A program made the position numbers and the translations under genes. A stretch of DNA of 64,000 nucleotides. It comes from an uncultured Candidatus Saccharibacteria bacterium (GTDB lineage: Bacteria > Patescibacteriota > Minisyncoccia > Phycocordibacterales > UBA9973). Under the pieces are notes generated by a model. That model saw nothing but the letters and a program-made list of their open reading frames with translations. It had not been told where the DNA came from and ran no database searches. Position 1 is the stretch's first letter. Every line of letters starts with the position of its first letter. The stretch covers positions 87,166-151,165 of the forward strand of contig CAZGOI010000001.1 in assembly GCA_964527185.1 (NCBI GenBank). The letters are read 5' to 3'. Shown piece by piece: positions 4,691-51,530 of this stretch.

Positions 4691-4721
4691 GACTCGCCTA
4701 GGTGAGTCTTTTTATTTTTTT
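4691..4721 (+). terminator. rho-independent terminator after the sigma/anti-sigma operon
   Basis: gactcgcctaggtgagtc hairpin followed by ttttatttttttt. Confidence 0.55.
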
Positions 4722-4784
4722 AATAATGAAAAATTGGCCGAACGTCTAACATTATAGCAATAATAAATTCAAAATGATATTATA
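4721..4784 (+). promoter_or_regulatory. copy B of the 64-bp element, immediately upstream of the ankyrin gene
   Basis: Near-identical to 2830..2893. It ends 8 bp before the ATG at 4793. Confidence 0.45.
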
Positions 4785-4792
4785 AAAGCATA

Positions 4793-5341
4793 ATGACCGA
4801 GAAAAAATATTCACCAGATGGTAAAGGAGGAGGTGGTATTGCTCTGACAAAAGACATGCTTCAGGGTTTAGCTGATTTGGGCTATCCGAAAAGCATGAGA
4901 AATACTATTGATTATTGGAATGCTGAGGAAATAATAAAAAAACAATTATCATATAAAAAAATTGATATTGGGGTATCGGAAGAAGAAAAGACAGATGAAG
5001 TAAAAAAAGATATAGAAAAAGATTACAGGAGTATTGAGCACAGTGGTGCTGATAAATTTAAAGCGGTTTACAATTTGAAACCCGAGGATTTAGAAAAAGC
5101 TCTTGAGTTTGATGATAATGTAAATGAAAAAGATGACGGCGGCGATACGATGCTTCACATTGTTGTAAATATGGCTTTTGGAGATTTCAAAAATGCCAAA
5201 AGGATTATTGAGATGCTAAAGAAGAAAGGTGTAAATATTTTTCTTAAAAATATAGATGGATTGACAGCCATAGATATAGCCGAACGCAGATCAGAGAAAA
5301 CGCCTGAATATAAAGATATTGTTGATGAATTGAAAAATTAA
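4793..5341 (+). CDS. ankyrin-repeat protein
   Basis: DGGDTMLHIVVNMAFGDFKNAKRIIEMLKKKGVNIFLKNIDGLTAIDIAERR fits the ankyrin-repeat consensus (TxLH..A....G....LL..GA..N..D..G.TA.D.A). Confidence 0.55.
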   Translation: MTEKKYSPDGKGGGGIALTKDMLQGLADLGYPKSMRNTIDYWNAEEIIKKQLSYKKIDIGVSEEEKTDEVKKDIEKDYRSIEHSGADKFKAVYNLKPEDLEKALEFDDNVNEKDDGGDTMLHIVVNMAFGDFKNAKRIIEMLKKKGVNIFLKNIDGLTAIDIAERRSEKTPEYKDIVDELKN

Positions 5342-5393: not shown

Positions 5394-5969
5394 TTATAAA
5401 GCTCCTAGTTTCTTTAGCGCGTCTACCACAGGGCCAATAGGCAAACCTACTAAGGCAAAATAATCACCGTTAATTTTACTAACAAGCAATGCTCCTTTTT
5501 CTTGAATGGCATAAGCCCCGGCTCTATCTAGTGGTTCTCCCGTTGCAATATATTCATCTATTTCTTTTTCAGATAGCTTTTTAAAATAAACTTCTATGAC
5601 TTCTGCTTCAGATATAATTTCTCCATTTTTACAATTTATTAAACTATATCCAGTGATGACTTGGTGAATTTGTCCACTCAACATGTTTAGCATATCCTTG
5701 GCTTTTTCTTTTGTATGGGGTTTACCTAAAACTTTATCTTTGTACGATATAAATGTGTCGGAACCGATCACTACTACGTTCTCATCTTTATGTCTAGCGG
5801 CTACTGCCTCAGCTTTACCTAAGGATAAATATTTCGCAAGGTCAATAGGATGCATGTCTAGCGTCATATCTTCCTCATATGATGATGGTTCAGTATCAAA
5901 TTTAATTCCAATTTGCTCTAGCAATTGTTTTCTTCTTGGGGATGTGGATGCCAGAATAATCTTTTTCAT
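5394..5969 (-). CDS. maf: Maf-like nucleoside triphosphate pyrophosphatase
   Basis: MKKIILASTSPRRKQLLEQIGI..VIGSDT..GKP..GAYAIQ are Maf signatures. Confidence 0.85.
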   Translation of the reverse strand: MKKIILASTSPRRKQLLEQIGIKFDTEPSSYEEDMTLDMHPIDLAKYLSLGKAEAVAARHKDENVVVIGSDTFISYKDKVLGKPHTKEKAKDMLNMLSGQIHQVITGYSLINCKNGEIISEAEVIEVYFKKLSEKEIDEYIATGEPLDRAGAYAIQEKGALLVSKINGDYFALVGLPIGPVVDALKKLGAL

Positions 5970-6109
5970 AAATCTAGTATAGCAAAATTATGAAATAAAC
6001 TGATGTTAAATTATTTTCTTAAATTTAAAGGGGTGTTTTTAATTGCAAGGACCAAACTAATTCTCTCTTTCACTTGGTTTGGGTGGTATTAGGCGAGTCT
6101 TTTTATTTT

Positions 6110-6603
6110 TTATTGCGGATCAACACCTCGCCAGAGGTTGCTGGTATTTACAGAATGGTTACCAGATGCTTTTACATATAGAAATAGCTGCATTTTGTAT
6201 GCCACAAAATTTTTGAGAAGCGCAAGAAGGAAAAGGGCTTTAGATTGCGTCGTACCAAATCGAGTGATGACTTTGCTTAACTCTTCATCTGTAAATTTAT
6301 CAAAAAGTACTTTCATTTCTTTTTCTTCTTTTTCCATACGCTCGATGAAATTATCAAGAGTTGTAGCTTCCCTACTTTCTTTCAATTTTCTTTCAATTCA
6401 TCAAAAAGCTTTGGGTTGTCTTCGAGGGTCGCACGCATTGAAATCGTCCCCATCTCACTGAGATAGTGCAGGAGTTCCAGTGTTGTACGTTGTTTTTCTG
6501 TTGGCTTGTAATCTGATTTGCCGTGTGGAATCTTTTCGAACAAATGCTTTATAATCCGAATTTCATTTTCAAAAGACGCCCATATTTCTTCTCTTGTATA
6601 CAT
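6110..6603 (-). pseudogene. DinB/YfiT-like protein gene disrupted by an 11-bp tandem duplication
   Basis: Two adjacent ORFs (6382..6603 and 6110..6385) sit in different frames. The unit ttctttcaatt occurs twice in tandem at 6377..6398. Removing one copy fuses the frames into ..PKLFDELKESREATTLDNF.. (about 162 aa). Confidence 0.5.
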
Positions 6604-6637
6604 AATTTAATTTTGTTTATTAATAATTTTTTCTCTT

Positions 6638-6711
6638 GGGTGCCTACTGGGATTTGAACCCAGGCTGAGAGTTCCACAAACTCTAGTGCTAACCATTACA
6701 CTATAGGCACC
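6638..6711 (-). tRNA. tRNA-His (anticodon GTG) with G-1
   Basis: The reverse complement GGUGCCUAUAGUGUAAUGGUUAGCACUAGAGUUUGUGGAACUCU..GGUUCAAAUCC..AGGCACC folds as a cloverleaf with anticodon loop UUGUGGA. There is an extra 5' G opposite C73. CCA is not encoded. Confidence 0.8.
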
Positions 6712-6767
6712 ATGTGCGCCGCGAGGCGTGACAATGTTATACCAGAAAAACATTTATAAATCTAGTT

Positions 6768-9317: not shown

Positions 9318-9338
9318 AAAAATATTATAACACCTAGA

Positions 9339-18740: not shown

Positions 18741-18756
18741 TTGATATAATAGCTCT

Positions 18757-28014: not shown

Positions 28015-28045
28015 GGGTCTATTATAGCAAAAAAGCGGGACGATT

Positions 28046-32115: not shown

Positions 32116-32850
32116 TTATCCTCCGAGTCCACGCGGATCCCATCTGCCTTGATGAGGATTTATTGTCCCATTTCCTCCGGGATCGTAACGACGACCAGAA
32201 GGAGCAGGATACCAACCTCTTATTGGGGGTTGTGATCCGCCACCGCCACTAAAAATTATTCTGATTAGTGATGGCGATCTCCGAACTGTAGGTTCAACAA
32301 CAACTTCTCTTTGGATAATTGTTTTTACTACCGTAGGACCTTGAGCGTCTTTAGTTGGCTGATTTTCATCCCCCTCAGTCATTGAAGGTAGTGTCTCGTT
32401 GTTAACAACCTTGGTGTTATTTACGACGGAGTCTTTATATGTTATCCGTAAAACTAAACTGTCTTTGGTTTCTATTTTTACAATTTTGACAGCATTTACG
32501 GGTTTCATATAAACAACTTGGTTTCCGCAGATAGCAGCATAATAATTTCCTTTTTTTTCATATATTTTCTCTCCTTTTGGGAAGACGATATAATTACGAT
32601 CCAGATTATTATGCTCATTGTCGGCAAAACGAACGAAGTAGTCACTTGGCAAAGTATAAACAGTAACTCCGAGGGGTTCTGACCCCTCATATACCATTTT
32701 TGCTTCGGGCCTTTCAGACCAATAAGCGCCCTTGGTTATGTGTTCAAAACCATCGTAACGGACAGTTCCTGTTTGGATTTCATCTTTTTGGGCTTTGGAT
32801 TGCTGGCCAAATGAAAGGACGGCAATCACAATTACAATGAACTTTTTCAT
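32116..32850 (-). CDS. secreted hypothetical protein with a Gly/Pro/Arg-rich C-terminus
   Basis: Signal peptide MKKFIVIVIAVLSFGQQSKAQ. The C-terminus reads GGGGSQPPIRGWYPAPSGRRYDPGGNG. Confidence 0.4.
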   Translation of the reverse strand: MKKFIVIVIAVLSFGQQSKAQKDEIQTGTVRYDGFEHITKGAYWSERPEAKMVYEGSEPLGVTVYTLPSDYFVRFADNEHNNLDRNYIVFPKGEKIYEKKGNYYAAICGNQVVYMKPVNAVKIVKIETKDSLVLRITYKDSVVNNTKVVNNETLPSMTEGDENQPTKDAQGPTVVKTIIQREVVVEPTVRRSPSLIRIIFSGGGGSQPPIRGWYPAPSGRRYDPGGNGTINPHQGRWDPRGLGG

Positions 32851-32991
32851 TTGGATTGTTTTTATTTGTTATATCAAAACCCCAATAAACTCATAAGTTT
32901 TGAGGATCTAATATAACAAATAGAAACTAACCCATCTGGCCGAATCCTATCATATTTATGACAAGTTGTCAAGTATAGGATACTAGATTTT

Positions 32992-34713
32992 GTGCGATAT
33001 AATAAGGCTATTATGACTATTAAATTTGATGACGAGAAAGAAGAGAAAGAGCTGGGTGACTTGCGCCGACAAGAAGAAGAAGATTTGGTTCAAGCTCTAG
33101 CCGAATCTAGGTACGGCATCGCACCGATAAACCTAGCTACTATCCCCATAGACAACGACGCCTTACGTTCGATACCAGAAGAAGATGCTATAAAAGAAGA
33201 AGTTGCCCCATTTAAAGTCCTTGGCAAGGATATCCATGTTGCTGTTCGTTCACCGCAAAAAGAAAAGCTGGCTAGTCTCAAGGAATATTTTGAAAATCAT
33301 GGGTATGTTCCCCATTTTTATATGGCATCACTTGCAAGTTTAAATAAAGCATGGGAACGATATAAAGAAATTTCATACGCTTCGGAATCAAAAGCAGGCA
33401 GTATCGCGATTTCAGGTGAGACGCTAAAAAAATTGATGGTTGATTTGAAAAATATTGAAGATGTCAAAAAAGCTATAGTCGCCGCCGAAGAAGAAAAAAT
33501 TCACTCGACGTCGCACATACTCGAGATTGCGCTCGCTGGCGCGATCGCAATCGACGCTTCAGATTTACACTTTGAACCCGAAGAAGAAACTGTGCGTTTG
33601 CGCTTTCGTCTAGATGGTGTGTTGCATACGGTCATGGATATTCCGCCTGCGGTCCACCGGTTTATAAATTCGAGAATAAAATTGCTGGCAGGTCTTAAAA
33701 TAACCAATTCATCAGTTGCCCAAGATGGTCGCTTTAGTATTTTCCTTGACCAAGATGAGATTAGCCTGCGCGTCTCGCTTATACCCGGGGCATATGGCGA
33801 ATCGATTGTCATGAGAATATTAAACCCGAAGTCTATCAGAGTAAAACTCGAGGATATGGGTATCGAGCCGAACATGTATGAAATATTTATGCGCGAGATC
33901 AAAAAACCAAACGGTATGATACTTTTAACTGGCCCAACTGGCTCTGGTAAAACGACGACGCTCTATTCGTTCCTGCAGAAAATTTATTCAACAGAAATTA
34001 AAATAATCACAATCGAAGACCCGATCGAATACCACCTGCCCGGCATAACCCAAACACAAACAGACGACGAGAAGGGGTATACATTTCTCGAGGGGTTGCG
34101 TTCAGCCCTGCGCCAAGACCCAGATGTCATAATGGTCGGGGAAATTCGAGACGCTGAAACTGCAAAGATTGCTGTTGAGTCGGCCTTGACTGGCCACTTG
34201 GTTTTTTCGACACTCCACACCAATAACGCTGCGGGTGTGATACCGCGTTTGATCGATCTTGAAGTCAACCCAAAAATTCTTGTCTCGGCATTGTCACTCT
34301 CAATTGCTCAGCGCTTGGTCCGCAAGCTCTGCCAAAATTGCAAAAAAGAAAAACAAATAACTGATGAAGAGATGAGGGTTATGAAAAAAATTATTGACAA
34401 TGCCAAATCTAACGGTAAAGATTTTTCTAGCTATGGCGTCTATGTTGGCGCAAAATTTAAAATATACAGCCCTGTTGGTTGCCTAGAATGCAACAACACT
34501 GGCTACAGGGGCCGTATTGGAATATTTGAAGCTATTCACAACAATGCCGAGATCGAAGCGATTATTCCCAAAAATCCGAGCGAGCGAGAGATTAAAGAAA
34601 TTGCCGCTCATCAAGGCATGCTCGATATGGCCGAAGATGGAGTAGTAAAAATATTGAGGGGTATTACTTCATACGAAGAAGTTGCCTCGGTTGTTGATTT
34701 CTACGAGGAATAG
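32992..34713 (+). CDS. pilB: type IV pilus assembly ATPase PilB (GspE family)
   Basis: Walker A LLTGPTGSGKTTTLYS, Asp box, Walker B/His box (MVGEIRDAETA..ALTGHLVFSTLHTN), and the tetracysteine zinc motif CQNC..CLEC. Confidence 0.85.
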   Translation: MRYNKAIMTIKFDDEKEEKELGDLRRQEEEDLVQALAESRYGIAPINLATIPIDNDALRSIPEEDAIKEEVAPFKVLGKDIHVAVRSPQKEKLASLKEYFENHGYVPHFYMASLASLNKAWERYKEISYASESKAGSIAISGETLKKLMVDLKNIEDVKKAIVAAEEEKIHSTSHILEIALAGAIAIDASDLHFEPEEETVRLRFRLDGVLHTVMDIPPAVHRFINSRIKLLAGLKITNSSVAQDGRFSIFLDQDEISLRVSLIPGAYGESIVMRILNPKSIRVKLEDMGIEPNMYEIFMREIKKPNGMILLTGPTGSGKTTTLYSFLQKIYSTEIKIITIEDPIEYHLPGITQTQTDDEKGYTFLEGLRSALRQDPDVIMVGEIRDAETAKIAVESALTGHLVFSTLHTNNAAGVIPRLIDLEVNPKILVSALSLSIAQRLVRKLCQNCKKEKQITDEEMRVMKKIIDNAKSNGKDFSSYGVYVGAKFKIYSPVGCLECNNTGYRGRIGIFEAIHNNAEIEAIIPKNPSEREIKEIAAHQGMLDMAEDGVVKILRGITSYEEVASVVDFYEE

Positions 34714-34728
34714 AGGAATAAAAGAAAA

Positions 34729-34875
34729 GACATAAATCTCTAAACAATCCTTTGAAAGCGTGCGCGATCAAAGTAACGCGTGGTTGCAGGATAACCCCAG
34801 TAAATAATAAATTAAAACCAGAATGTCCTACGTACAAACGTAGAGCACGGGGCCGATTGCTTAGAGATTTATGTC
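34729..34875. repeat. 147-bp element bounded by 21-bp near-perfect inverted repeats (MITE-like, or a long-stem structured RNA)
   Basis: gacataaatctctaaacaatc (34729..34749) against gattgcttagagatttatgtc (34855..34875), with 20 of 21 bases complementary. The 105-nt interior has internal hairpins (cctacgtacaaacgtagag, ggataacccc..acggggcc). Confidence 0.5.
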
Positions 34876-34946
34876 GTCTCTATAGTAAATGATATAATTG
34901 CCATGTATCTAAAATTCTTTAGCTAATATATCATATTTACGTAGCA

Positions 34947-35936
34947 ATGTCAAGCACAAAACAAACAACTAAAGACGAGGGATTTTTGGACCAAACGCTG
35001 CGCCCGAGCGCTTGGGTCGAGTATATTGGCCAAGAAAATATTAAGGCGAATTTAAAAATACTGCTTCAAGCGGCCGAAGAGCGCTCGCATCCGGCCGAGC
35101 ATATATTATTTTATGGTCCGCCAGGTTTAGGGAAAACAACTCTGGCTCATTTGATAGCTAAAGAAACTGGTCGGCAGATAAAAATAACATCTGGGCCAGC
35201 CATAGAAAAAGTTGGTGACCTAGCATCAATCCTGACAAATCTTTCATCTGGAGATATAGTTTTCATAGACGAAATTCATCGATTAAATAAAATGGTCGAA
35301 GAAGTTCTCTACCCTGCCATGGAAAGTGGCGTGCTTGATATCATCATCGGCAAGGGTCCGTCGGCTAGAACAATACAGCTCGAACTGCCACCGTTTACGC
35401 TCATCGCTGCAACTACTCGTATCGCGCTTCTCTCGTCGCCATTGCGATCGAGGTTCTCTGGTGGAGTTTTTCGTTTGGAATTTTATACACAAGAGGAAAT
35501 AAAAAAAATATTAAAGAGGTCGGCAAAGATTTTGGGTGTGGTACTCGATGAAGCGGCGCTCGACGAAATCGCCAAACGAGCACGCTTTACACCAAGGACT
35601 GCAAATTATTTCCTAAAACGCTGTCGAGACTATGCCCAAGTTCATAAATTGCCACTGTCAAAAGAAGCGGTGAAAAAAGCTCTTGATTTGCTTGAGATTG
35701 ACGAGCTCGGTTTGTCTTCGTCTGACCGAAGAATAATAGAAGTTGTAATAGAAAAATTTGGTGGCGGGCCAGTCGGCCTCAAAACTATAGCTGCGGCAGT
35801 TAGCGAAGAAGAGGCAACGATCGAAGAAGTTATCGAGCCATATTTAATTCAACTTGGTTTACTCGAACGCACACCTCGCGGCCGAACAGTCACAGAAGCT
35901 GGATATAAACATTTGGGTTTTGATTATAAAAAATAA
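34947..35936 (+). CDS. ruvB: Holliday junction branch migration helicase RuvB
   Basis: Walker A GPPGLGKTTLAHLIA and Walker B VFIDEIHRL. A sigma-70 -10-like TATAAT lies at 34893..34898. Confidence 0.9.
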   Translation: MSSTKQTTKDEGFLDQTLRPSAWVEYIGQENIKANLKILLQAAEERSHPAEHILFYGPPGLGKTTLAHLIAKETGRQIKITSGPAIEKVGDLASILTNLSSGDIVFIDEIHRLNKMVEEVLYPAMESGVLDIIIGKGPSARTIQLELPPFTLIAATTRIALLSSPLRSRFSGGVFRLEFYTQEEIKKILKRSAKILGVVLDEAALDEIAKRARFTPRTANYFLKRCRDYAQVHKLPLSKEAVKKALDLLEIDELGLSSSDRRIIEVVIEKFGGGPVGLKTIAAAVSEEEATIEEVIEPYLIQLGLLERTPRGRTVTEAGYKHLGFDYKK

Positions 35937-35939
35937 ATT

Positions 35940-36419
35940 ATGAGAATACTTGCGATCGATCCAGGTTTTGAGCGAGTCGGCATAGCTGTTTTAGAAAAAA
36001 TAGATGGTGGCAAGGAAACACTAATTTATTCAGGTTGCTTTAAAACAAAAAAATTATTTCACTTTTCAAAAAGGCTTAACTTAATAGGTCAAGAGGTTGA
36101 GATGGTTGTAAAAAAATATAAACCAAAAGTTTTGGCCATAGAGAAACTTTACTTAAATACAAACCAAAAGACGGTCATGGGTGTGGCAGAGGCTCGTGGT
36201 GTGATTTTATATGTTGCTTCGATGAGCGGTTTAGATATTTTTGAATATTCTCCACCACAGATAAAGTTGGCAGTGACGGGCTATGGCCGGGCAACAAAAG
36301 ACATGGTTATAAGGATGATTCCTAGGCTTATAAAAGTAGGTGGTGGGGTAAGTTCAGATGATGAACTCGACGCTATAGCTGTCGGGCTTACTTGTTTTGC
36401 CTGTGAAAGGTTTAAATAG
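35940..36419 (+). CDS. ruvC: crossover junction endodeoxyribonuclease RuvC
   Basis: MRILAIDPGFERVGIAVL..AIEKLYL..DELDAIAVGL. Confidence 0.85.
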   Translation: MRILAIDPGFERVGIAVLEKIDGGKETLIYSGCFKTKKLFHFSKRLNLIGQEVEMVVKKYKPKVLAIEKLYLNTNQKTVMGVAEARGVILYVASMSGLDIFEYSPPQIKLAVTGYGRATKDMVIRMIPRLIKVGGGVSSDDELDAIAVGLTCFACERFK

Positions 36420-37986: not shown

Positions 37987-40524
37987 GTGATGGAAAAAAT
38001 GTCAAAGCACTTGGCTTCTTTAAAAAAATCAATCTTAAAACATTCATTGAGAAATTGGATTTTGGGTTTCCTTGGTCTTTTTATAATAGCATTTGGGTGC
38101 CTCGTTATTTGGGTCAGCACCCTTAAATTGCCAGATTTCAAATCTTTTAATGAGCGCAAAATACAAAGCTCGACAAAAATATATGATCGAACTGGCAAAA
38201 TACTCCTCTATGATGTACACCAAGATATCAAGCGGACGATTATTCCCTATGAAGCGATGGGGGTCAATATAAAAAATGCGACGGTTGCAATAGAAGATTC
38301 TGAATTTTATCAACACAACGGTATAAGGATTACCTCTATTATTCGTGGAACAATTTGGGCGTTTTTGACTGGTAAAAAAATCCAGGGTGGTTCGACCATA
38401 ACCCAACAACTCATCAAAAATACACTCCTCAATCAAGACAGAACTATATCTAGAAAAATTAAAGAGTGGATCTTGGCGCTTAAACTTGAAAAGGTTATGA
38501 GCAAAGAAGATATTTTGGCACTTTATTTAAATGAGGCGCCGTATGGTGGAAATATCTATGGTGTTGAGGAAGCTTCTCGAGCATTTTTTGGTAAAGAACC
38601 AAAAGATATGACACTCGCCGAGTCGGCCTATATGGCAGCTATTCCAAATGCGCCGACATACTATTCCCCGTACGGTAAAAATAAAAAAGAACTCGATTCT
38701 CGAAAAAATTTGGTTTTAAAAAGAATGCTTGATCTAAAATTTATTAATCAAGATGATTACAACAAGGCGATAGCCGAGAGTGTGGTTTTCCTTCCGTCTC
38801 AACCGCTTCACATCGCCGCTCCGCATTTTGTTTTCTTTATACAAGATTATCTATTAAAAAAATATGGTCAAGAAGCACTTGATTCTGGTGGTTTGAATGT
38901 TATAACAACCCTTGATTATGACCTTGAAACCAAAGCCGAGGCTATTGCGCTTGCACGGGCAAAGGATAATGAGAAGAATTGGAGTGGTAAAAATGCCGCG
39001 GTTGTTGTGATCGACCCGCGCAATGGCCAGATACTTGCAATGGTTGGTTCAAGGAATTATTTTGATAAAACAATTGATGGTAATTTCAACGTTGCAACAG
39101 CACCTAGGCAACCTGGTTCTTCGTTTAAACCAATAGTCTATGCAGAGGCTTTTAAAGAAGGCTATACCGAGGATACAACGCTTTTTGACCTTAAAACAGA
39201 ATTCAATTCATCTTGCAGCCCAGCTGGAGCGCCGCTACCTGGACACAAAAATGCAAAGTGTTATATGCCGAGCAATTATGACAATGGTTTCCGTGGGCCG
39301 ATGACTTTGAAAAATGCATTGGCTCAATCGATAAACGTCGTAGCTGTAAAACTTCTTTATTTGGTTGGCGTACCCGATGCACTTAAAATGGCGCATGATC
39401 TTGGTATCACAACACTCAATGACCCAACACGTTATGGTTTGTCGCTTGTGATCGGTGGTGGAGAGACGACCTTGCTTGACATGACCTCAGCTTATAGTGT
39501 ATTTGCAGGTGATGGGGTCAGACATCCATACCAAGCAATACTTTCTGTTACAGACTCAAGTGGTAATATACTCGAAAGTTATGAAGATAAACCATATCAA
39601 GTAATAGATTCAAATATAGCTAGAACAATATCGGATGTTCTTTCAGACAACGTCGCGCGAACTCCAACATTTGGAGCCAATTCAAGTTTAGTAGTTCCTG
39701 GTCGCAATGTCGCCGTTAAAACTGGTACGACTAATGACAACAAAGATGCTTGGACCATAGGTTATACACCATCGGTTGTAGTTGGTGTTTGGGTTGGCAA
39801 TAATAATAATATGCCGATGAAAAAAGGTGGCGCCGCTTTGGCTGGACCAATATGGAATGATGTAATTAGAGAGGCCTTAAAAAATTTGCCAGTTGAATCT
39901 TTTGGCCGACCGAATCCAATAGACCAAGGCCTACCCCCAATAATGCGGGGGCTTTGGCAGGGTAATGAAACTTTTACAATAGACACAATTTCTGGTGGTT
40001 TAGCTACAGAATTCACTCCTATTGAAACAAGAAAGGAAGAGTCTGTAACTGATGTTCATGATATTTTATATTGGATAGACAAGAGCAACCCACTTGGACC
40101 AAAACCACAAAACCCAGATAATGACCCACTGTATAAAAATTGGGAGTATGGGGTAGACAAGTGGTGGAGTATAAATAAGGGAAATTATAAAACAATAACC
40201 GAGGCAGATAAACCAACATTTTATGATAATATTCACACAACACTAAATAAAATAAGTCTTTCTATTGTTGGATTAAGTGGTGATTATAAAAAAACAGATG
40301 TTGTTACATTTTCTGTTGCGCCCTCAGTTCAAAACGTAATTCAAAAAATTGATGTTTTTGTTAATGATACTTATATAAAATCTATACAAACAACACCATA
40401 TACTGTAAGCCTATCACCTAGCGATCTAGGAAATATTTCAACCAATAATACAATAAAAATAATTGGCTATGATAGTCTTGGTAATAGTACTCAATCCATA
40501 GCTTCTTTTAATATTTCTAATTAG
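37987..40524 (+). CDS. class A penicillin-binding protein (PBP1A: transglycosylase plus transpeptidase) with a ~250-aa C-terminal extension
   Basis: An N-terminal transmembrane segment. Transglycosylase motifs (EDSEFYQHNGI, GGSTITQQL). Transpeptidase motifs SxxK (SSFKP), SxN (SIN) and KTG (KTGTTND). A long Asn/Thr-rich C-terminal tail. Confidence 0.85.
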   Translation: MMEKMSKHLASLKKSILKHSLRNWILGFLGLFIIAFGCLVIWVSTLKLPDFKSFNERKIQSSTKIYDRTGKILLYDVHQDIKRTIIPYEAMGVNIKNATVAIEDSEFYQHNGIRITSIIRGTIWAFLTGKKIQGGSTITQQLIKNTLLNQDRTISRKIKEWILALKLEKVMSKEDILALYLNEAPYGGNIYGVEEASRAFFGKEPKDMTLAESAYMAAIPNAPTYYSPYGKNKKELDSRKNLVLKRMLDLKFINQDDYNKAIAESVVFLPSQPLHIAAPHFVFFIQDYLLKKYGQEALDSGGLNVITTLDYDLETKAEAIALARAKDNEKNWSGKNAAVVVIDPRNGQILAMVGSRNYFDKTIDGNFNVATAPRQPGSSFKPIVYAEAFKEGYTEDTTLFDLKTEFNSSCSPAGAPLPGHKNAKCYMPSNYDNGFRGPMTLKNALAQSINVVAVKLLYLVGVPDALKMAHDLGITTLNDPTRYGLSLVIGGGETTLLDMTSAYSVFAGDGVRHPYQAILSVTDSSGNILESYEDKPYQVIDSNIARTISDVLSDNVARTPTFGANSSLVVPGRNVAVKTGTTNDNKDAWTIGYTPSVVVGVWVGNNNNMPMKKGGAALAGPIWNDVIREALKNLPVESFGRPNPIDQGLPPIMRGLWQGNETFTIDTISGGLATEFTPIETRKEESVTDVHDILYWIDKSNPLGPKPQNPDNDPLYKNWEYGVDKWWSINKGNYKTITEADKPTFYDNIHTTLNKISLSIVGLSGDYKKTDVVTFSVAPSVQNVIQKIDVFVNDTYIKSIQTTPYTVSLSPSDLGNISTNNTIKIIGYDSLGNSTQSIASFNISN

Positions 40525-40784
40525 TGAATTTTATATATTTTTTTATTTTGTAAAATGTTATTTAGATCACTTAAAATTCCGTCTTTGTGTATTAGGATTT
40601 CGTTTCTAAGCGCTGGCGAACCTTGTATATAAATATCAAATCCTTTGACTTTTATTGACCCTTCGTCTATTTGTATAGTTGTGTGTTTGTTTATAATAAT
40701 AACTATTGTTTTTACTTCTTCTTCTTTTTGAAGAAAAATCTTTTTAAACTTATCTAAAAAATTATCGATTCGATTAAAATCCAT
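40521..40784 (-). CDS. small DUF721-like protein (DciA-like) downstream of dnaN
   Basis: An 87-aa protein in the position DUF721 usually occupies near dnaN, with matching pattern IQIDEGSIKVKGFDIYIQGSPALRNEIL. Confidence 0.35.
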   Translation of the reverse strand: MDFNRIDNFLDKFKKIFLQKEEEVKTIVIIINKHTTIQIDEGSIKVKGFDIYIQGSPALRNEILIHKDGILSDLNNILQNKKIYKIH

Positions 40785-41882
40785 CTATTTATTCATTGGC
40801 ATAACAAGATACATAAACGATTGGTCACCAACGGGTTTTATAATCATTGCTTTATTACCACCAGAGAACTCTAAACTAATACTGTCTTCAGAAATTGATT
40901 GGAAGCAATCTAATATATACTTGTAATTAAAATTAGCTATAACCACTTCGCCAGATAGAGCGCCAGAAACAAATGTGCTATTTTCTCCTATATCAGTATT
41001 TTTCGATTCTATTTCAAAAAATTTTTCTTGTGGTCTTACCGAGAGTGAGATTTGGTTGAATTTATCAGAAAAAATATTTGATATTTTTAGGGAGGATAGT
41101 AGGTCTTGTTTTAAAACAATAGCTTTTGTTGTTGGGTTTTTGGGAATTATCTGTTTATAGTCTGGGAAGGATCCATCTATAATTCTTGAGGTTAGATATA
41201 TACTATCTGTGGTTATAGATATTTGGCTTTTTTGAATAGTGAGTTTTATATCTTCATCTAGTGTTTCAAGTATTTTTATAATTTCTATACTGTTTTTAAA
41301 TGGTAGTAAAATATTTGAAAATGATAGTTTTTGTTTTATTTTTATTTTTTTCTCAGCCAACCTAAAAGAGTCTGTGGCCACAAAAACAAGCATGTCTTCG
41401 TCTGGATATATATTTATACTACCGATTTCTGGTTTTATTTCAGAAGTAGACGAGCTGTAGTAGACAGATTTTAACCCTTCAAGTAGTTTTTTACTTGGGA
41501 TTGATACTGTTTCCCCTTTAATTATTGGAATTGTTGGGAAATCTTCATATGGAACACTTTTAAGAAGTATTGTGTTGTGTTTGGTTTTTACCGATAAATT
41601 ATTGTTTATAGATTCAAAATAAACATTTCCATCATTTGAAATTTGGGAAAATAGCGACGATAGCACGTCTCCTCGAATAGCCATGACGCCACTTTTTTCT
41701 ATTTTAGCAGGCACAGTAACTTCTATACCGATACTTAGATTGGTTGATCGTAGTTTTAGGTTTTTATCATTAACCACCCAAAGTATAGATCCTAAAACTG
41801 GGAGAGTTAGGTTTCTACCAGTTAACCTCTCAACTAATATCAGTGCATTTTTTATTTTACTAACTTGGCATTCTAATTTCAT
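40785..41882 (-). CDS. dnaN: DNA polymerase III beta sliding clamp
   Basis: MKLECQVSKIKNALILVERLTGRNLTLPVLGSILW, with a three-domain length of 365 aa. Confidence 0.85.
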   Translation of the reverse strand: MKLECQVSKIKNALILVERLTGRNLTLPVLGSILWVVNDKNLKLRSTNLSIGIEVTVPAKIEKSGVMAIRGDVLSSLFSQISNDGNVYFESINNNLSVKTKHNTILLKSVPYEDFPTIPIIKGETVSIPSKKLLEGLKSVYYSSSTSEIKPEIGSINIYPDEDMLVFVATDSFRLAEKKIKIKQKLSFSNILLPFKNSIEIIKILETLDEDIKLTIQKSQISITTDSIYLTSRIIDGSFPDYKQIIPKNPTTKAIVLKQDLLSSLKISNIFSDKFNQISLSVRPQEKFFEIESKNTDIGENSTFVSGALSGEVVIANFNYKYILDCFQSISEDSISLEFSGGNKAMIIKPVGDQSFMYLVMPMNK

Positions 41883-42087
41883 ACTATTCTAATTAATTAC
41901 TTATATAAATCTATTATTAATATTATATCTGTTGATATGTTGATTGTCTTAATTAATCATATATATAAAGCTATTTTCAGATAATCCCATCTAACAACCC
42001 ACCCCTAATTGTTAATTATTTTATATAACTTAAAAATCTTGTAATTTTTCCACACTAATTAAAAAATTAAACACTCTTTATTCACAA
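41883..42087. promoter_or_regulatory. candidate oriC in the AT-rich dnaA-dnaN intergenic spacer
   Basis: A spacer more than 80% A+T. It contains DnaA-box-like 9-mers TTTTCCACA and TTATTCACA, each one mismatch from TTATCCACA, and long A/T tracts suited to unwinding. Confidence 0.4.
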
Positions 42088-43437
42088 CTATTTAAACATC
42101 ACCCTAATCTTTTCTATCTCTTGTAATAACGACGGATCTGTTTTTAAATCATCTTTGATTTTTAAATGAGAGTGAATTACTGTTGTATGGTCTCGTCCAC
42201 CAAGTTTTTGCCCTATAAGTGGGTAAGAAATACTAAAATCCTCTCTCAATATATACATGGCCACCTGTCGCGCACGAACAATTTCCTTCCTTCTTGTTTT
42301 TTCATAAATAACATCCTCTGAAATTCCATATTGGTCAGCAATTATTTTTACAATATCTTTTATGGCTACTGTTTTCTTTGGTTTAATATTGTTTTTAATC
42401 AAAGTTTTAACCTCGTTTAATGTTAAAACCCTATTCTTTAACTGAGATTGATATATAACAATATTTAAACTACCCTCGAGCTCCCTTATATTTCCTTCTA
42501 ATGATTCTGCTAAATAAGCGATAACCTCTGGTTCTATTATGCAATTTGTAGATTCAAATTTAGCTTTTATAATAGCAATTCTTGATTCATAATCTGGCTC
42601 AACAACCTGCACAATCATACCGGAAGAAAACCTCGATTGCAATCGTTCTTCTAACCCCTGAATAAAGTTTGGGTGTTTATCAGAAGAAAAAACTATTTGT
42701 TTATTACTCTCATATAGGGTATTGAAAAGATGAAACAATTCTTCTTGTGTTTTATCTTTTCCAGAAATAAATTGAATGTCGTCCATGATAATTACATCAT
42801 ATTTTCTATATTTTTCTTTAAATGAATTTGGGTTTTTATTTTGAATCGAGTTTATATAGTCGACTGCAAACTTTTCAAGACTAACATAGTAAACTTTTTT
42901 ACTAGAGTGTTTGGTTTTTATTGTGTTACCAATCGCTTGTATTATGTGTGTTTTACCAAGACCAGTGCCACCATATATAAAAAATGGATTATAATTTTGC
43001 CCGGGATTATTAACAACCGCTTGAGCAACAGCATATGCAAGCTCATTAAATGGTCCAACAACAAAAGAGTTAAAAGTGTATCTAGGGTTTAAATTATCAT
43101 CTTTATTTATATATAAATCAGAAAGCGGCAATTCTTTATTTACAGAAACAACTTGTTTTACCACTTCAACACGACCCTTATCTATATTTTCATGCTTTGA
43201 AATTATATATTCTATTCCACGAACACTATCTTCGTGGGAAATAATAGTTTTTAATATTAATTTATGGAATTTATTATACAGCCAATCCTTTACGAATTCA
43301 TTTGGCACTCCGACATAAAGTGTGCCAGAATCCTCCTTAACTATATAAGTATTTCTAAACCAAGTAGAGAAATTAGCCTTAGAAATACTGAGTTCTATCT
43401 CAGCAAGACAGTTATCCCACAACTCCTTAGTATTCAT
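42088..43437 (-). CDS. dnaA: chromosomal replication initiator DnaA
   Basis: AAA+ Walker A GGTGLGKTHIIQAIGN, Walker B VIIMDDIQF, and the C-terminal DNA-binding helix-turn-helix (VAMYILRE). Confidence 0.9.
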   Translation of the reverse strand: MNTKELWDNCLAEIELSISKANFSTWFRNTYIVKEDSGTLYVGVPNEFVKDWLYNKFHKLILKTIISHEDSVRGIEYIISKHENIDKGRVEVVKQVVSVNKELPLSDLYINKDDNLNPRYTFNSFVVGPFNELAYAVAQAVVNNPGQNYNPFFIYGGTGLGKTHIIQAIGNTIKTKHSSKKVYYVSLEKFAVDYINSIQNKNPNSFKEKYRKYDVIIMDDIQFISGKDKTQEELFHLFNTLYESNKQIVFSSDKHPNFIQGLEERLQSRFSSGMIVQVVEPDYESRIAIIKAKFESTNCIIEPEVIAYLAESLEGNIRELEGSLNIVIYQSQLKNRVLTLNEVKTLIKNNIKPKKTVAIKDIVKIIADQYGISEDVIYEKTRRKEIVRARQVAMYILREDFSISYPLIGQKLGGRDHTTVIHSHLKIKDDLKTDPSLLQEIEKIRVMFK

Positions 43438-43569
43438 AGTGCGTATTATACTCTCTTTTATAAAACGACCAACAATAAAAAACCTTGATTAACCTGTTAA
43501 TAATATGTGTATATCTAAACCACCACAAACTCTATTGCCTAAGCTATAAATTTAGTATATATTTTCTTT

Positions 43570-43710
43570 ATGTCTAGAACATATAAACCCAATAAAAGAA
43601 AGAGAGCAAAAACTCACGGGTTTCTTGCTCGTTCAAAAAAAGTTGGTGGACGCAATGTTACCCAAGCTCGCCGACGCAAGGGTCGCAAAAAAGTTTCTAT
43701 AAGAAAATAA
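43570..43710 (+). CDS. rpmH: 50S ribosomal protein L34
   Basis: [46 protein letters not shown]. It falls below the ORF-track cutoff and sits in the classic rpmH-rnpA position. Confidence 0.85.
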
Positions 43711-43711
43711 C

Positions 43712-44026
43712 ATGCTTCCAAAAGGAAAGCGTATAGAAAAAGATCTATTTCAAAAAACAACAAACTCCAACAAGGTTATATCGACCCCGCTTTTTGTTTT
43801 TAAATTTATAAAAAACAACAAACCAAAATATTCTTTTGTGGCGCCAAAAGCGATTTTTAAACTTGCGACAAAAAGAAATAAATTTAAAAGAATCGGCTAT
43901 AACACCCTAAGAAATGAAAGGTTACCAAGCTATACCGGTATTTTTATTTTTAAAAAATCAACCCTAACATCAAACAAAAAAGATATCGAATTAAGTATTG
44001 TAGAAATAATAAAGAAATTGAGATGA
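43712..44026 (+). CDS. rnpA: RNase P protein component
   Basis: A small basic protein directly after rpmH with the conserved RnpA pattern (LPKGKRIEKD..FKR). Confidence 0.8.
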   Translation: MLPKGKRIEKDLFQKTTNSNKVISTPLFVFKFIKNNKPKYSFVAPKAIFKLATKRNKFKRIGYNTLRNERLPSYTGIFIFKKSTLTSNKKDIELSIVEIIKKLR

Positions 44027-51513: not shown

Positions 51514-51530
51514 TTAAATATTATATCACA

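Follow-up and report, generated by a model that had tools for sequence, protein, structure and literature searches.

The 64,000-nucleotide stretch analysed here, referred to as the window (positions 87,166 to 151,165 of contig CAZGOI010000001.1, assembly GCA_964527185.1), belongs to an uncultured bacterium of the Patescibacteria. Between its genes pilB and ruvB lies a unit bounded by inverted repeats, for which an earlier note, made from the sequence alone, preferred a miniature inverted-repeat transposable element (MITE) and offered as an alternative a structured 5' leader or small RNA. The unit is almost certainly a structured RNA gene on the minus strand. Its body extends from the first base of a closing stem (34880) to the end of a U-rich tract (34716), and homologues are present in about 196 loci. 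What had been taken for terminal inverted repeats are the two strands of the 26-bp closing stem of a rod-shaped RNA. The element represents a new RNA family with 6S-like architecture, and a function as a 6S-type decoy of the housekeeping RNA polymerase is a plausible but tentative reading of it. We regard the strand, structure, conservation and synteny of this RNA, together with its promoter and terminator motifs, as demonstrated; polymerase binding and product-RNA synthesis would be expected under the 6S-type reading.

Strand and secondary structure

The 21-bp inverted repeat described in the earlier note, with 105 nt between its arms, was reproduced in coordinates and pairing. The arm at 34729-34749 reads GACATAAATCTCTAAACAATC; the other arm, at 34855-34875, is its reverse complement except for one mismatch, so that 20 of 21 positions pair. 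A repeat finder lengthens the arms to 27 nt (34723-34749 and 34855-34881) with 89% complementarity and the same 105 nt enclosed. No third copy of the 21-nt arm is present in the 64 kb, and none of 100 dinucleotide shuffles of the window matched. The comparison of fold stability with shuffled sequences, proposed in the same note, gave -49.4 kcal/mol (z = -5.2) for the plus strand and -59.6 kcal/mol (z = -7.6) for the minus strand, and on neither strand was any of 200 dinucleotide shuffles as stable. The absence of an open reading frame (ORF) was also confirmed, as across 186 homologues stop-free runs have a median of 36-41 codons and differences in length are not multiples of three. The case against which the note had guarded, a single copy with neither conservation nor a stable fold, does not apply, because conservation and fold are both very strong.

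The strand of the RNA was first signalled as wrong in the original reading by an invariant G.U pair in the closing stem. The one mismatch between the arms, A.C when read on the plus strand, becomes a G.U pair on the minus strand (G34860 with U34744) and is invariant in relatives. The position is G.U in 93 of 100 rows of the family alignment and A-U in 4. Over the alignment, with a five-helix structure, 425 G.U cells were counted on the minus strand against 40 A.C cells. A further helix, with the consensus 5'-GUUCUGG-3' paired to 5'-CUGGGNC-3' and a nearly invariant tandem U.G/G.U, is possible on the minus strand only. A U-rich tract, GUCUUUUCUUUUAUUC (34716-34731, minus strand), covers the 3' end of the closing stem, continues beyond it and presumably marks the end of the transcript; its family consensus is GUUUUUUUCUUU, and 9-12 of its 16 bases are T in most loci. 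No such tract follows the stem on the plus strand. The covariance model of the family, R1, matches the minus strand at 34722-34880 (159 nt) with 152.7 bits against 47.1 bits for the plus strand, which is the weakest of the strand arguments, since the model was built from minus-strand sequences and favours its own strand by construction. The E-values given by R1 are rough.

A plus-strand RNA, acting as a structured 3' tail or terminator of pilB or as a leader or riboswitch of ruvB, would agree with the stable plus-strand fold and with the position of the element in the window, directly after the pilB stop codon. It is nevertheless very improbable. On that strand the 425 cells become A.C mismatches, including the invariant one in the closing stem and the whole tandem-GU helix, and the terminal U-tract is missing. 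The -10 element of ruvB lies downstream of the element, which is therefore outside the ruvB transcript. In many relatives, moreover, the upstream gene ends in a terminator that precedes the element, or is a gene other than pilB, and R1 (about 150 bits against about 47) points the same way with the reservation already made. Because the RNA is on the minus strand, it is neither a 5' leader of ruvB nor a 3' tail of pilB. Thus, of the alternative offered in the earlier note, the small RNA holds, while the strand has to be exchanged and the ruvB leader abandoned on the evidence of the G.U excess, the U-tract and the promoter.

An element acting at the DNA level without an RNA product, for example a cruciform or a pair of operators bound by a ruvB regulator, has hardly more to recommend it. 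The inner 15 bp of both arms are almost sequence-invariant, which is unusual for an RNA helix, and the location is intergenic and regulatory. However, 105 bp separate the arms, and neither the invariant difference between them (A versus G) nor the 10:1 excess of G.U over A.C would have a meaning in duplex DNA. Strong covariation of the interior helices and the bracketing of the unit by a promoter and a U-tract also argue for a transcript, and the DNA-level explanation is accordingly considered highly unlikely.

The structure of the RNA, with all positions on the minus strand, starts with the 26-bp closing stem H1, whose 5' strand GAGACGACAUAAAUCUCUAAGCAAUC (34855-34880) pairs with the 3' strand GAUUGUUUAGAGAUUUAUGUCUUUUC (34724-34749), which holds the invariant G.U. 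The inner 15 nt of the 5' strand are nearly invariant in the family, 98-99% of the H1 cells are paired, and 10-13 pairs have changes on both sides. It is followed by a 5' central bulge of 13 nt, GGCCCCGUGCUCU (34842-34854), a length shared by 63 of 97 sequences. The bulge comprises a weak 3-bp hairpin, H2 (GGC/GCU), which is longer in some members and covaries in its pairs (GU/AU, GC/GU, CG/GC). The long-range helix H3 joins ACGUUUG (34835-34841) with CACGCGU (34776-34782) over 7 bp; all seven pairs show changes on both sides and rank among the top pairs by mutual information. Beyond an internal loop of about 4x4 nt (34831-34834 and 34783-34786), helix H4 pairs U-AGGA (34826-34830) with UCCU-G (34787-34791), and its AGGA/UCCU core is identical in 100 of 100 rows. 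The bulged C 34825 and the 2-nt bulge UA 34792-34793 form a 1x2 bulge between H4 and the 7-bp helix H4b, in which AUUCUGG (34818-34824) pairs with CUGGGGU (34794-34800). This is the tandem-GU helix. In 185 sequences its position 1 is GC in 152 and AU in 14, positions 5-6 show UG and GU, each 169 times, and position 7 has GC 173 times. Two CUGG motifs that had at first been judged unable to pair do so through this tandem G.U.

The arm ends in an AU-rich terminal loop (34801-34817), which varies from 0 to 36 nt in other members and is replaced by a GC-rich hairpin in a few. On the 3' side a junction UA (34774-34775) precedes the 10-bp hairpin H6, CUUUGAUCGC-GCAC-GCUUUCAAAG (34764-34773 with 34750-34759, loop 34760-34763), which stands opposite the 5' bulge. 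All ten pairs of H6 have changes on both sides, and its motif UUACUUU...AAAG is nearly invariant. The core measures 147-176 nt in members and 159 nt in the window. A first structure with the local hairpins CUACGU/ACGUAG and GUAAU/AUUAC was dropped, since covariation favours the long-range H3.

Support for the model comes from two alignments. A plain MAFFT alignment of 72 sequences has 93.2% of its cells paired, compared with 36-53% when the partners are slid, and 28 pairs with changes on both sides; none of 500 shuffles attained the observed values. The covariance-model alignment A5, with 100 rows, gave 92.6% of cells paired and 38 pairs with changes on both sides, although it was fitted to the model and thus leans towards it. 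Almost all of the top mutual-information pairs belong to the model, and the same search revealed no convincing pseudoknot beyond it. Three columns of A5 (167, 171 and 206, at about 34777, 34773 and 34750 of the window) covary three-way, from U,U,A to A,A,U to C,C,G. Such a joint change points to a base triple or to another pairing register where H3 and H6 meet.

Conservation beside ruvB

Both flanking genes named in the earlier note were borne out. The gene pilB (32992-34713) encodes a PilB-type T2SSE ATPase and has its stop codon directly before the unit. The divergent neighbour of the RNA, ruvB (34947-35936, plus strand), matches all of the Pfam domains RuvB_N, AAA_lid_4 and RuvB_C, and ruvC (35940-36419) is located downstream of it.

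Relatives of RuvB were collected from one-genome-per-species collections, sampled down to about 70% identity of RuvB, and yielded 80 loci, all of them from Patescibacteria of the Paceibacteria/'Nomurabacteria' type. By nhmmer and the covariance model, the RNA adjoins ruvB in 76 of these 80 genomes. Among the other four, one shows a 3'-truncated partial match (L015), two have little or no sequence upstream of ruvB (L012, L061), and one carries the RNA about 2 kb downstream of the gene (L069). The covariance model recovers the RNA in every one of the 80 loci that has upstream sequence. A second sample, of at least 120 metagenome contigs, was fetched by a pattern of both arm cores; in every contig listed whose flank is long enough, ruvB adjoins the RNA from the same side, with the relative orientation unchanged. 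Together with the genomes of related Paceibacteria, these contigs make up the approximately 196 loci, across which the RNA core is nearly invariant and no empty site is found where the flank suffices. As far as seen, the family is confined, within the relatives sampled, to Paceibacteria whose RuvB is at least about 70% identical.

The gene on the side away from ruvB is often, but not always, pilB. In many relatives this upstream gene has an intrinsic terminator hairpin of its own, which on the plus strand precedes the element by 10-15 nt and has no promoter for that strand beyond it. The copy number is one in the 64-kb window and one per locus across about 1.4 Mb of related DNA. The flanks AAAAGAAA and ATAGTAAA have no common direct repeat, that is, no target-site duplication is visible.

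These observations bear on the MITE that was thought to be inserted between pilB and ruvB. Its outline is matched by a size of 147-160 bp, by the terminal inverted repeats and by the lack of an ORF, and elements of this sort do occur in the clade, as an inverted-repeat-bounded element of about 100 nt is dispersed in related genomes. Against it stand the single copy and the orthologous position in all of these genomes, with no polymorphism of presence and absence. In addition, compensatory changes are found in helices inside and outside the supposed terminal repeats, and the strand-asymmetric G.U pattern reflects selection on RNA. A unit present once, at one orthologous site in about 196 genomes, is therefore a gene or regulatory element and not a MITE. 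For practical purposes the MITE is already refuted, and its probability is negligible.

The dispersed element of about 100 nt is distinct from the RNA. It carries a 22-nt inverted repeat, AAAAATAGTTCTATTAGAGGG...CCCTCTAATAGAACTATTTTT, and was located at L010 2648-2759, L025 2515-2619 and 3907-4004, L022 4011-4111 and L004 4011-4109, as well as in L094 (two copies), L142, L180, L158 and L190. It occupies the gap between pilB and the RNA in some loci and the ruvB-ruvC gap in others, with two copies at some loci. The window contains no copy of this element, and Rfam does not match it; in appearance it is a true MITE or REP-like repeat or a mobile terminator.

Several members of the family deviate from the common form. 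In L069 the RNA lies at 5906-6074 on the same strand as ruvB, and a 16S rRNA gene (6517-6758) is found about 440 nt downstream of the RNA. A divergent subgroup (L084 1192-1365, L096 8983-9156 and L104 542-715) scores 57-61 bits, with RuvB 70-74% identical. In these three the G.U of H1 is changed to A-U, H2 is an 8-bp hairpin, the U-tract is missing, and the H3 region appears largely unpaired. A deletion variant in L024 (2789-2920) lacks the outer closing stem and the ruvB promoter region and covers model positions 13-144 only; its right arm runs straight into a AGTATAGCAT box.

The only ruvA homologue in the sequences examined is at L198 11273-11827, about 7 kb from the cluster of RNA, ruvB and ruvC, and ruvA is therefore unlinked to ruvB in this lineage. 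The usual arrangement elsewhere is a ruvAB operon. A replacement of ruvA by the RNA was considered and rejected on account of this homologue.

Predicted promoters of the RNA and of ruvB

A promoter for the RNA is predicted at 34925-34953 on the minus strand. It consists of TTGACA (34948-34953), a 17-nt spacer and a TG-extended TATATT (34925-34930), with 11 of 12 matches plus the TG, and its -35 hexamer overlaps the start codon of ruvB. Of 190 loci, 143 have a TTGACA-N17-(TGn)TAnAnT pattern in the 150 nt upstream of the stem. In 128 of the 190 the TTGACA is built from codons 1-3 of ruvB (read as ATGTCAA on the opposite strand), however far away the RNA body is. Transcription would start at about 34918, leaving an inferred 5' leader (34881-34918) before the closing stem. 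This leader varies in sequence and length in relatives, and across loci 35 to 121 nt separate the -10 from H1.

The TATAAT that the earlier note had placed beyond the unit proved to be part of an extended -10 element of ruvB, TGATATAAT (34890-34898, plus strand), which faces the RNA promoter and sits between it and the RNA body. In 62 loci the corresponding TGnTATAMT is 7-11 nt away from H1, and in 87 it is no more than 40 nt away. In the window and in close relatives the -10 elements of the RNA and of ruvB face each other at about 27-30 bp, and hence both transcripts would begin with an overlapping 5' segment, which in the window measures about 14 nt. In more distant members (e.g., L059, L063, L080) the promoters, judged by eye, appear back-to-back. 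Transcription from the RNA promoter probably interferes with ruvBC expression, with promoter occlusion as the inferred mode.

The extended -10 (TGnTATAMT) occurs 20 times in the window against 5.8 expected, mostly just upstream of genes and in the correct orientation, and it is the normal promoter type of the source genome. Examples are 5976-5984(-), 9324-9332(-), 18742-18750(+), 28021-28029(-) and 51520-51528(-). In many cases exactly 7 nt separate the end of the box from the start codon of the ORF that it precedes, a spacing which suggests that leaderless mRNAs are widespread in this genome. The gene ruvB is an exception to the pattern, with a leader of about 40 nt.

Other features were noted in the window. 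Two intergenic regions share an 86-nt direct repeat, 92% identical (2816-2901 and 4708-4793); both copies include a minus-strand TGCTATAAT box, and the repeat may have arisen by duplication of a promoter or leader. The interval between pilB and a divergent 244-aa ORF (32116-32850, minus strand) without Pfam match holds an imperfect inverted repeat of 33 nt (79%) at 32853-32932. The cumulative GC skew peaks at about 40-42 kb and then falls, and the lowest G+C of the window (0.295-0.305) is found at about 40000-44000, a region which may be a replication terminus, an origin or a foreign segment.

A possible 6S-type decoy or another class of RNA

Canonical 6S RNA is a rod of 160-200 nt with a -10-like element in its 3' bubble and a -35-like element in its apical arm (PMC8414754, PMC8876501). 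The core of the present RNA, at 147-176 nt, reaches the lower edge of this range, and the primary transcript is predicted to be longer. Arms of the kind described for 6S RNA (PMC8876501, PMC8414754) are provided by the covariation-backed H1 and by the H3-H4-H4b arm. A hairpin in the 3' part of the central bubble, as in the Firmicutes type, is provided by H6. The centre has 13 nt on its 5' side, with a covarying hairpin of 3-8 bp, and 2 nt plus the 10-bp hairpin on its 3' side. The apical arm includes the internal loop and the 1x2 bulge, whereas the closing stem has no interruption, only G.U pairs.

In the 6S-type reading, which is put forward with less than even confidence, an independently transcribed RNA gene of about 160 nt would run on the minus strand from about 34918 to 34716, head-to-head with ruvB. 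The leader and tail might be trimmed, possibly by RNase III cutting the perfect duplex, as suggested by the variable leader and the perfect duplex of 26-30 bp. The mature RNA would mimic an open promoter and so capture the housekeeping RNA polymerase, with the closing stem taking the part of the downstream duplex. The 13-nt bulge, which would stand in for the template strand, is close to the size of a transcription bubble. The invariant UA-CUUUG junction with its hairpin H6 could serve as the -10-like 3' bubble. The AGGA and tandem-GU segment would fall roughly where a -35-like contact is expected; by our own count AGGA/UCCU and the tandem G.U are about 25-36 positions 'upstream' of the junction, which remains an inference as much as the -10 mimic does. 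A product RNA complementary to the 5' bulge and H1 would read 5'-GGGGCCGAUUGCUUAG... Transcription from the RNA promoter on the ruvB start codon, directed towards the ruvB promoter, would probably disturb ruvBC expression. As a curiosity only, 6S genes in lactic acid bacteria adjoin rarA, which encodes another AAA+ recombination ATPase (PMC8414754). No paper in the literature searched mentions both 6S RNA and bacteria of the Candidate Phyla Radiation (CPR), which leaves the role of a 6S RNA unassigned among them.

Several observations weigh against a 6S-type function. None of the 6S models of Rfam 15 matched the window region or any of six diverse members at E <= 10. With filters off, R1 found no global match in E. 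coli ssrS (a sequence verified at 100% identity), with 4.9 bits at best, and its sole overlap with the 3'-bubble hairpin of ssrS was a local match of 0.9 bits. Because covariance models detect nothing in either direction, the link to 6S RNA is architectural and not a demonstrated homology. The closing stem is an uninterrupted perfect duplex, nearly sequence-invariant, whereas 6S arms are interrupted by bulges and poorly conserved in sequence (PMC8876501). The 5' bulge contains the covarying hairpin H2, and since H2 stands together with H6, the centre as folded is a compact four-way junction and not an open bubble. For a helix formed on collapse of the central bubble, a feature of 6S RNA, duplex energies were no better than those of shuffles (z = -0.2). 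The 5' end of the RNA is predicted from motifs alone. Finally, the strict ruvB linkage and the face-to-face promoters could indicate a locus-specific regulatory role instead. The RNA is thus likened to 6S in its supposed working only and is not filed as a member of that family.

A structured RNA unrelated to 6S, acting as a protein-binding scaffold or as a regulator tied to the ruvBC locus, is possible, although we consider it rather doubtful. Promoter occlusion and the short 5' antisense overlap would repress ruvBC, and the partner would be a double-stranded RNA-binding protein, RNase III, or a recombination or competence factor. Such a role is in line with the divergent orientation of the RNA and ruvB, kept in essentially all loci despite a varying gene on the opposite side, with a -35 set in the first ruvB codons independently of the distance to the body, and with the ruvB extended -10 between the RNA promoter and the RNA body. 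The invariant perfect duplex, the invariant G.U and the tandem G.U suggest sequence-specific recognition by a protein, and the lack of detectable 6S homology would be expected. On the other hand, promoter interference by itself needs no 160-nt RNA with 58 conserved pairs, and the back-to-back promoters of the more distant members do not conform to it. In L069 the RNA is located 2 kb downstream of ruvB, shortly before a 16S rRNA gene, and the RNA body therefore functions away from the ruvB promoter. The adjoining genes encode no candidate partner protein, and complementarity of the body to the ruvB start region was not seen. In its fullest form, an undescribed Paceibacteria RNA class rather than a diverged 6S, whose duplex and tandem-GU arm would bind a dedicated protein and whose transcription, driven from the consensus promoter on the ruvB start codon towards the ruvB promoter, would switch between the RNA and RuvBC recombination functions in bacteria dependent on DNA uptake, this explanation is on balance unlikely. 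The presence of a four-way-junction centre beside Holliday-junction genes may or may not be a coincidence.

Other families were considered as well. The Infernal/Rfam comparison proposed in the earlier note matched no described family to the unit. With Rfam 15, at the gathering score and at E <= 10, nothing was obtained at the element on the window, on 17 related loci or on six diverse members, and the matches returned elsewhere were only tRNAs and one 16S fragment. A ruvB-associated motif is likewise not described in the literature searched. The signal recognition particle RNA, prompted by ACCAG..GUCC on the plus strand, was discarded for lack of a GNRA loop and an AGCA motif and for its wrong topology and strand. 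A retron noncoding RNA would need a reverse transcriptase and an omega or guide RNA an IscB or TnpB gene; neither is found nearby. A tRNA-like or Y RNA was set aside as no rsr gene is close, and a riboswitch as no gene lies downstream on the RNA strand. For these candidates, as for an integron attC site, there was no Rfam match.

The Patescibacteria, or CPR bacteria, comprise a large and almost uncultured share of bacterial diversity. Their genomes are tiny, with very few known regulators. If the RNA is the 6S equivalent, a gap in the catalogue of near-universal RNAs is closed, and the extent of 6S drift, as far as a perfect closing duplex and a four-way centre, becomes apparent. If it is not, a new ribonucleoprotein component or regulator is wired to the recombination genes of organisms that import foreign DNA. 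Either way, the RNA offers a concrete target, in its binding partner, its product RNAs and its effect on ruvBC, and a covariance model for genome annotation.

Among known systems, the MITEs and REP-like dispersed repeats resemble the RNA in being short, noncoding, intergenic and bounded by inverted repeats. They differ from it in that the RNA is single-copy at an orthologous site, without target-site duplication, and selected for RNA pairing on one strand. Convergent promoter pairs and excludon-type cis-antisense overlaps share with it the facing promoters, the transcripts overlapping at their 5' ends and the expected occlusion of RNA polymerase. Here, however, one partner is a highly structured and deeply conserved RNA and not plain antisense, and the arrangement turns back-to-back in more distant members. 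In bacterial Y RNAs of the YrlA type, the 5' and 3' ends form a long stem of conserved sequence, presumably for protein recognition, and this stem bears a multi-helix module, as the closing stem does here with four helices at a junction. They are distinguished from the present RNA by T-loop-like and tRNA-like motifs, which it lacks, as it lacks an Rfam YrlA match and an rsr (Ro60) gene in the neighbourhood. The likeness to 6S RNA (ssrS; RF00013; E. coli 6S, B. subtilis 6S-1) includes the similar size, the closing stem made of the 5' and 3' ends, the 5' bulge of about 13 nt, the opposing hairpin on the 3' side and the looped apical arm, although the closing arm is shorter here (26-30 bp). A strong promoter of the housekeeping type (predicted here), a single copy and strong local synteny are also shared. 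The A131-CCUUG-AAC-CAAGG-G of E. coli 6S is resembled by the UA-CUUUG...CAAAG-G of the RNA, and in our comparison every 6S element appears to have its counterpart, in the same order and with similar dimensions.

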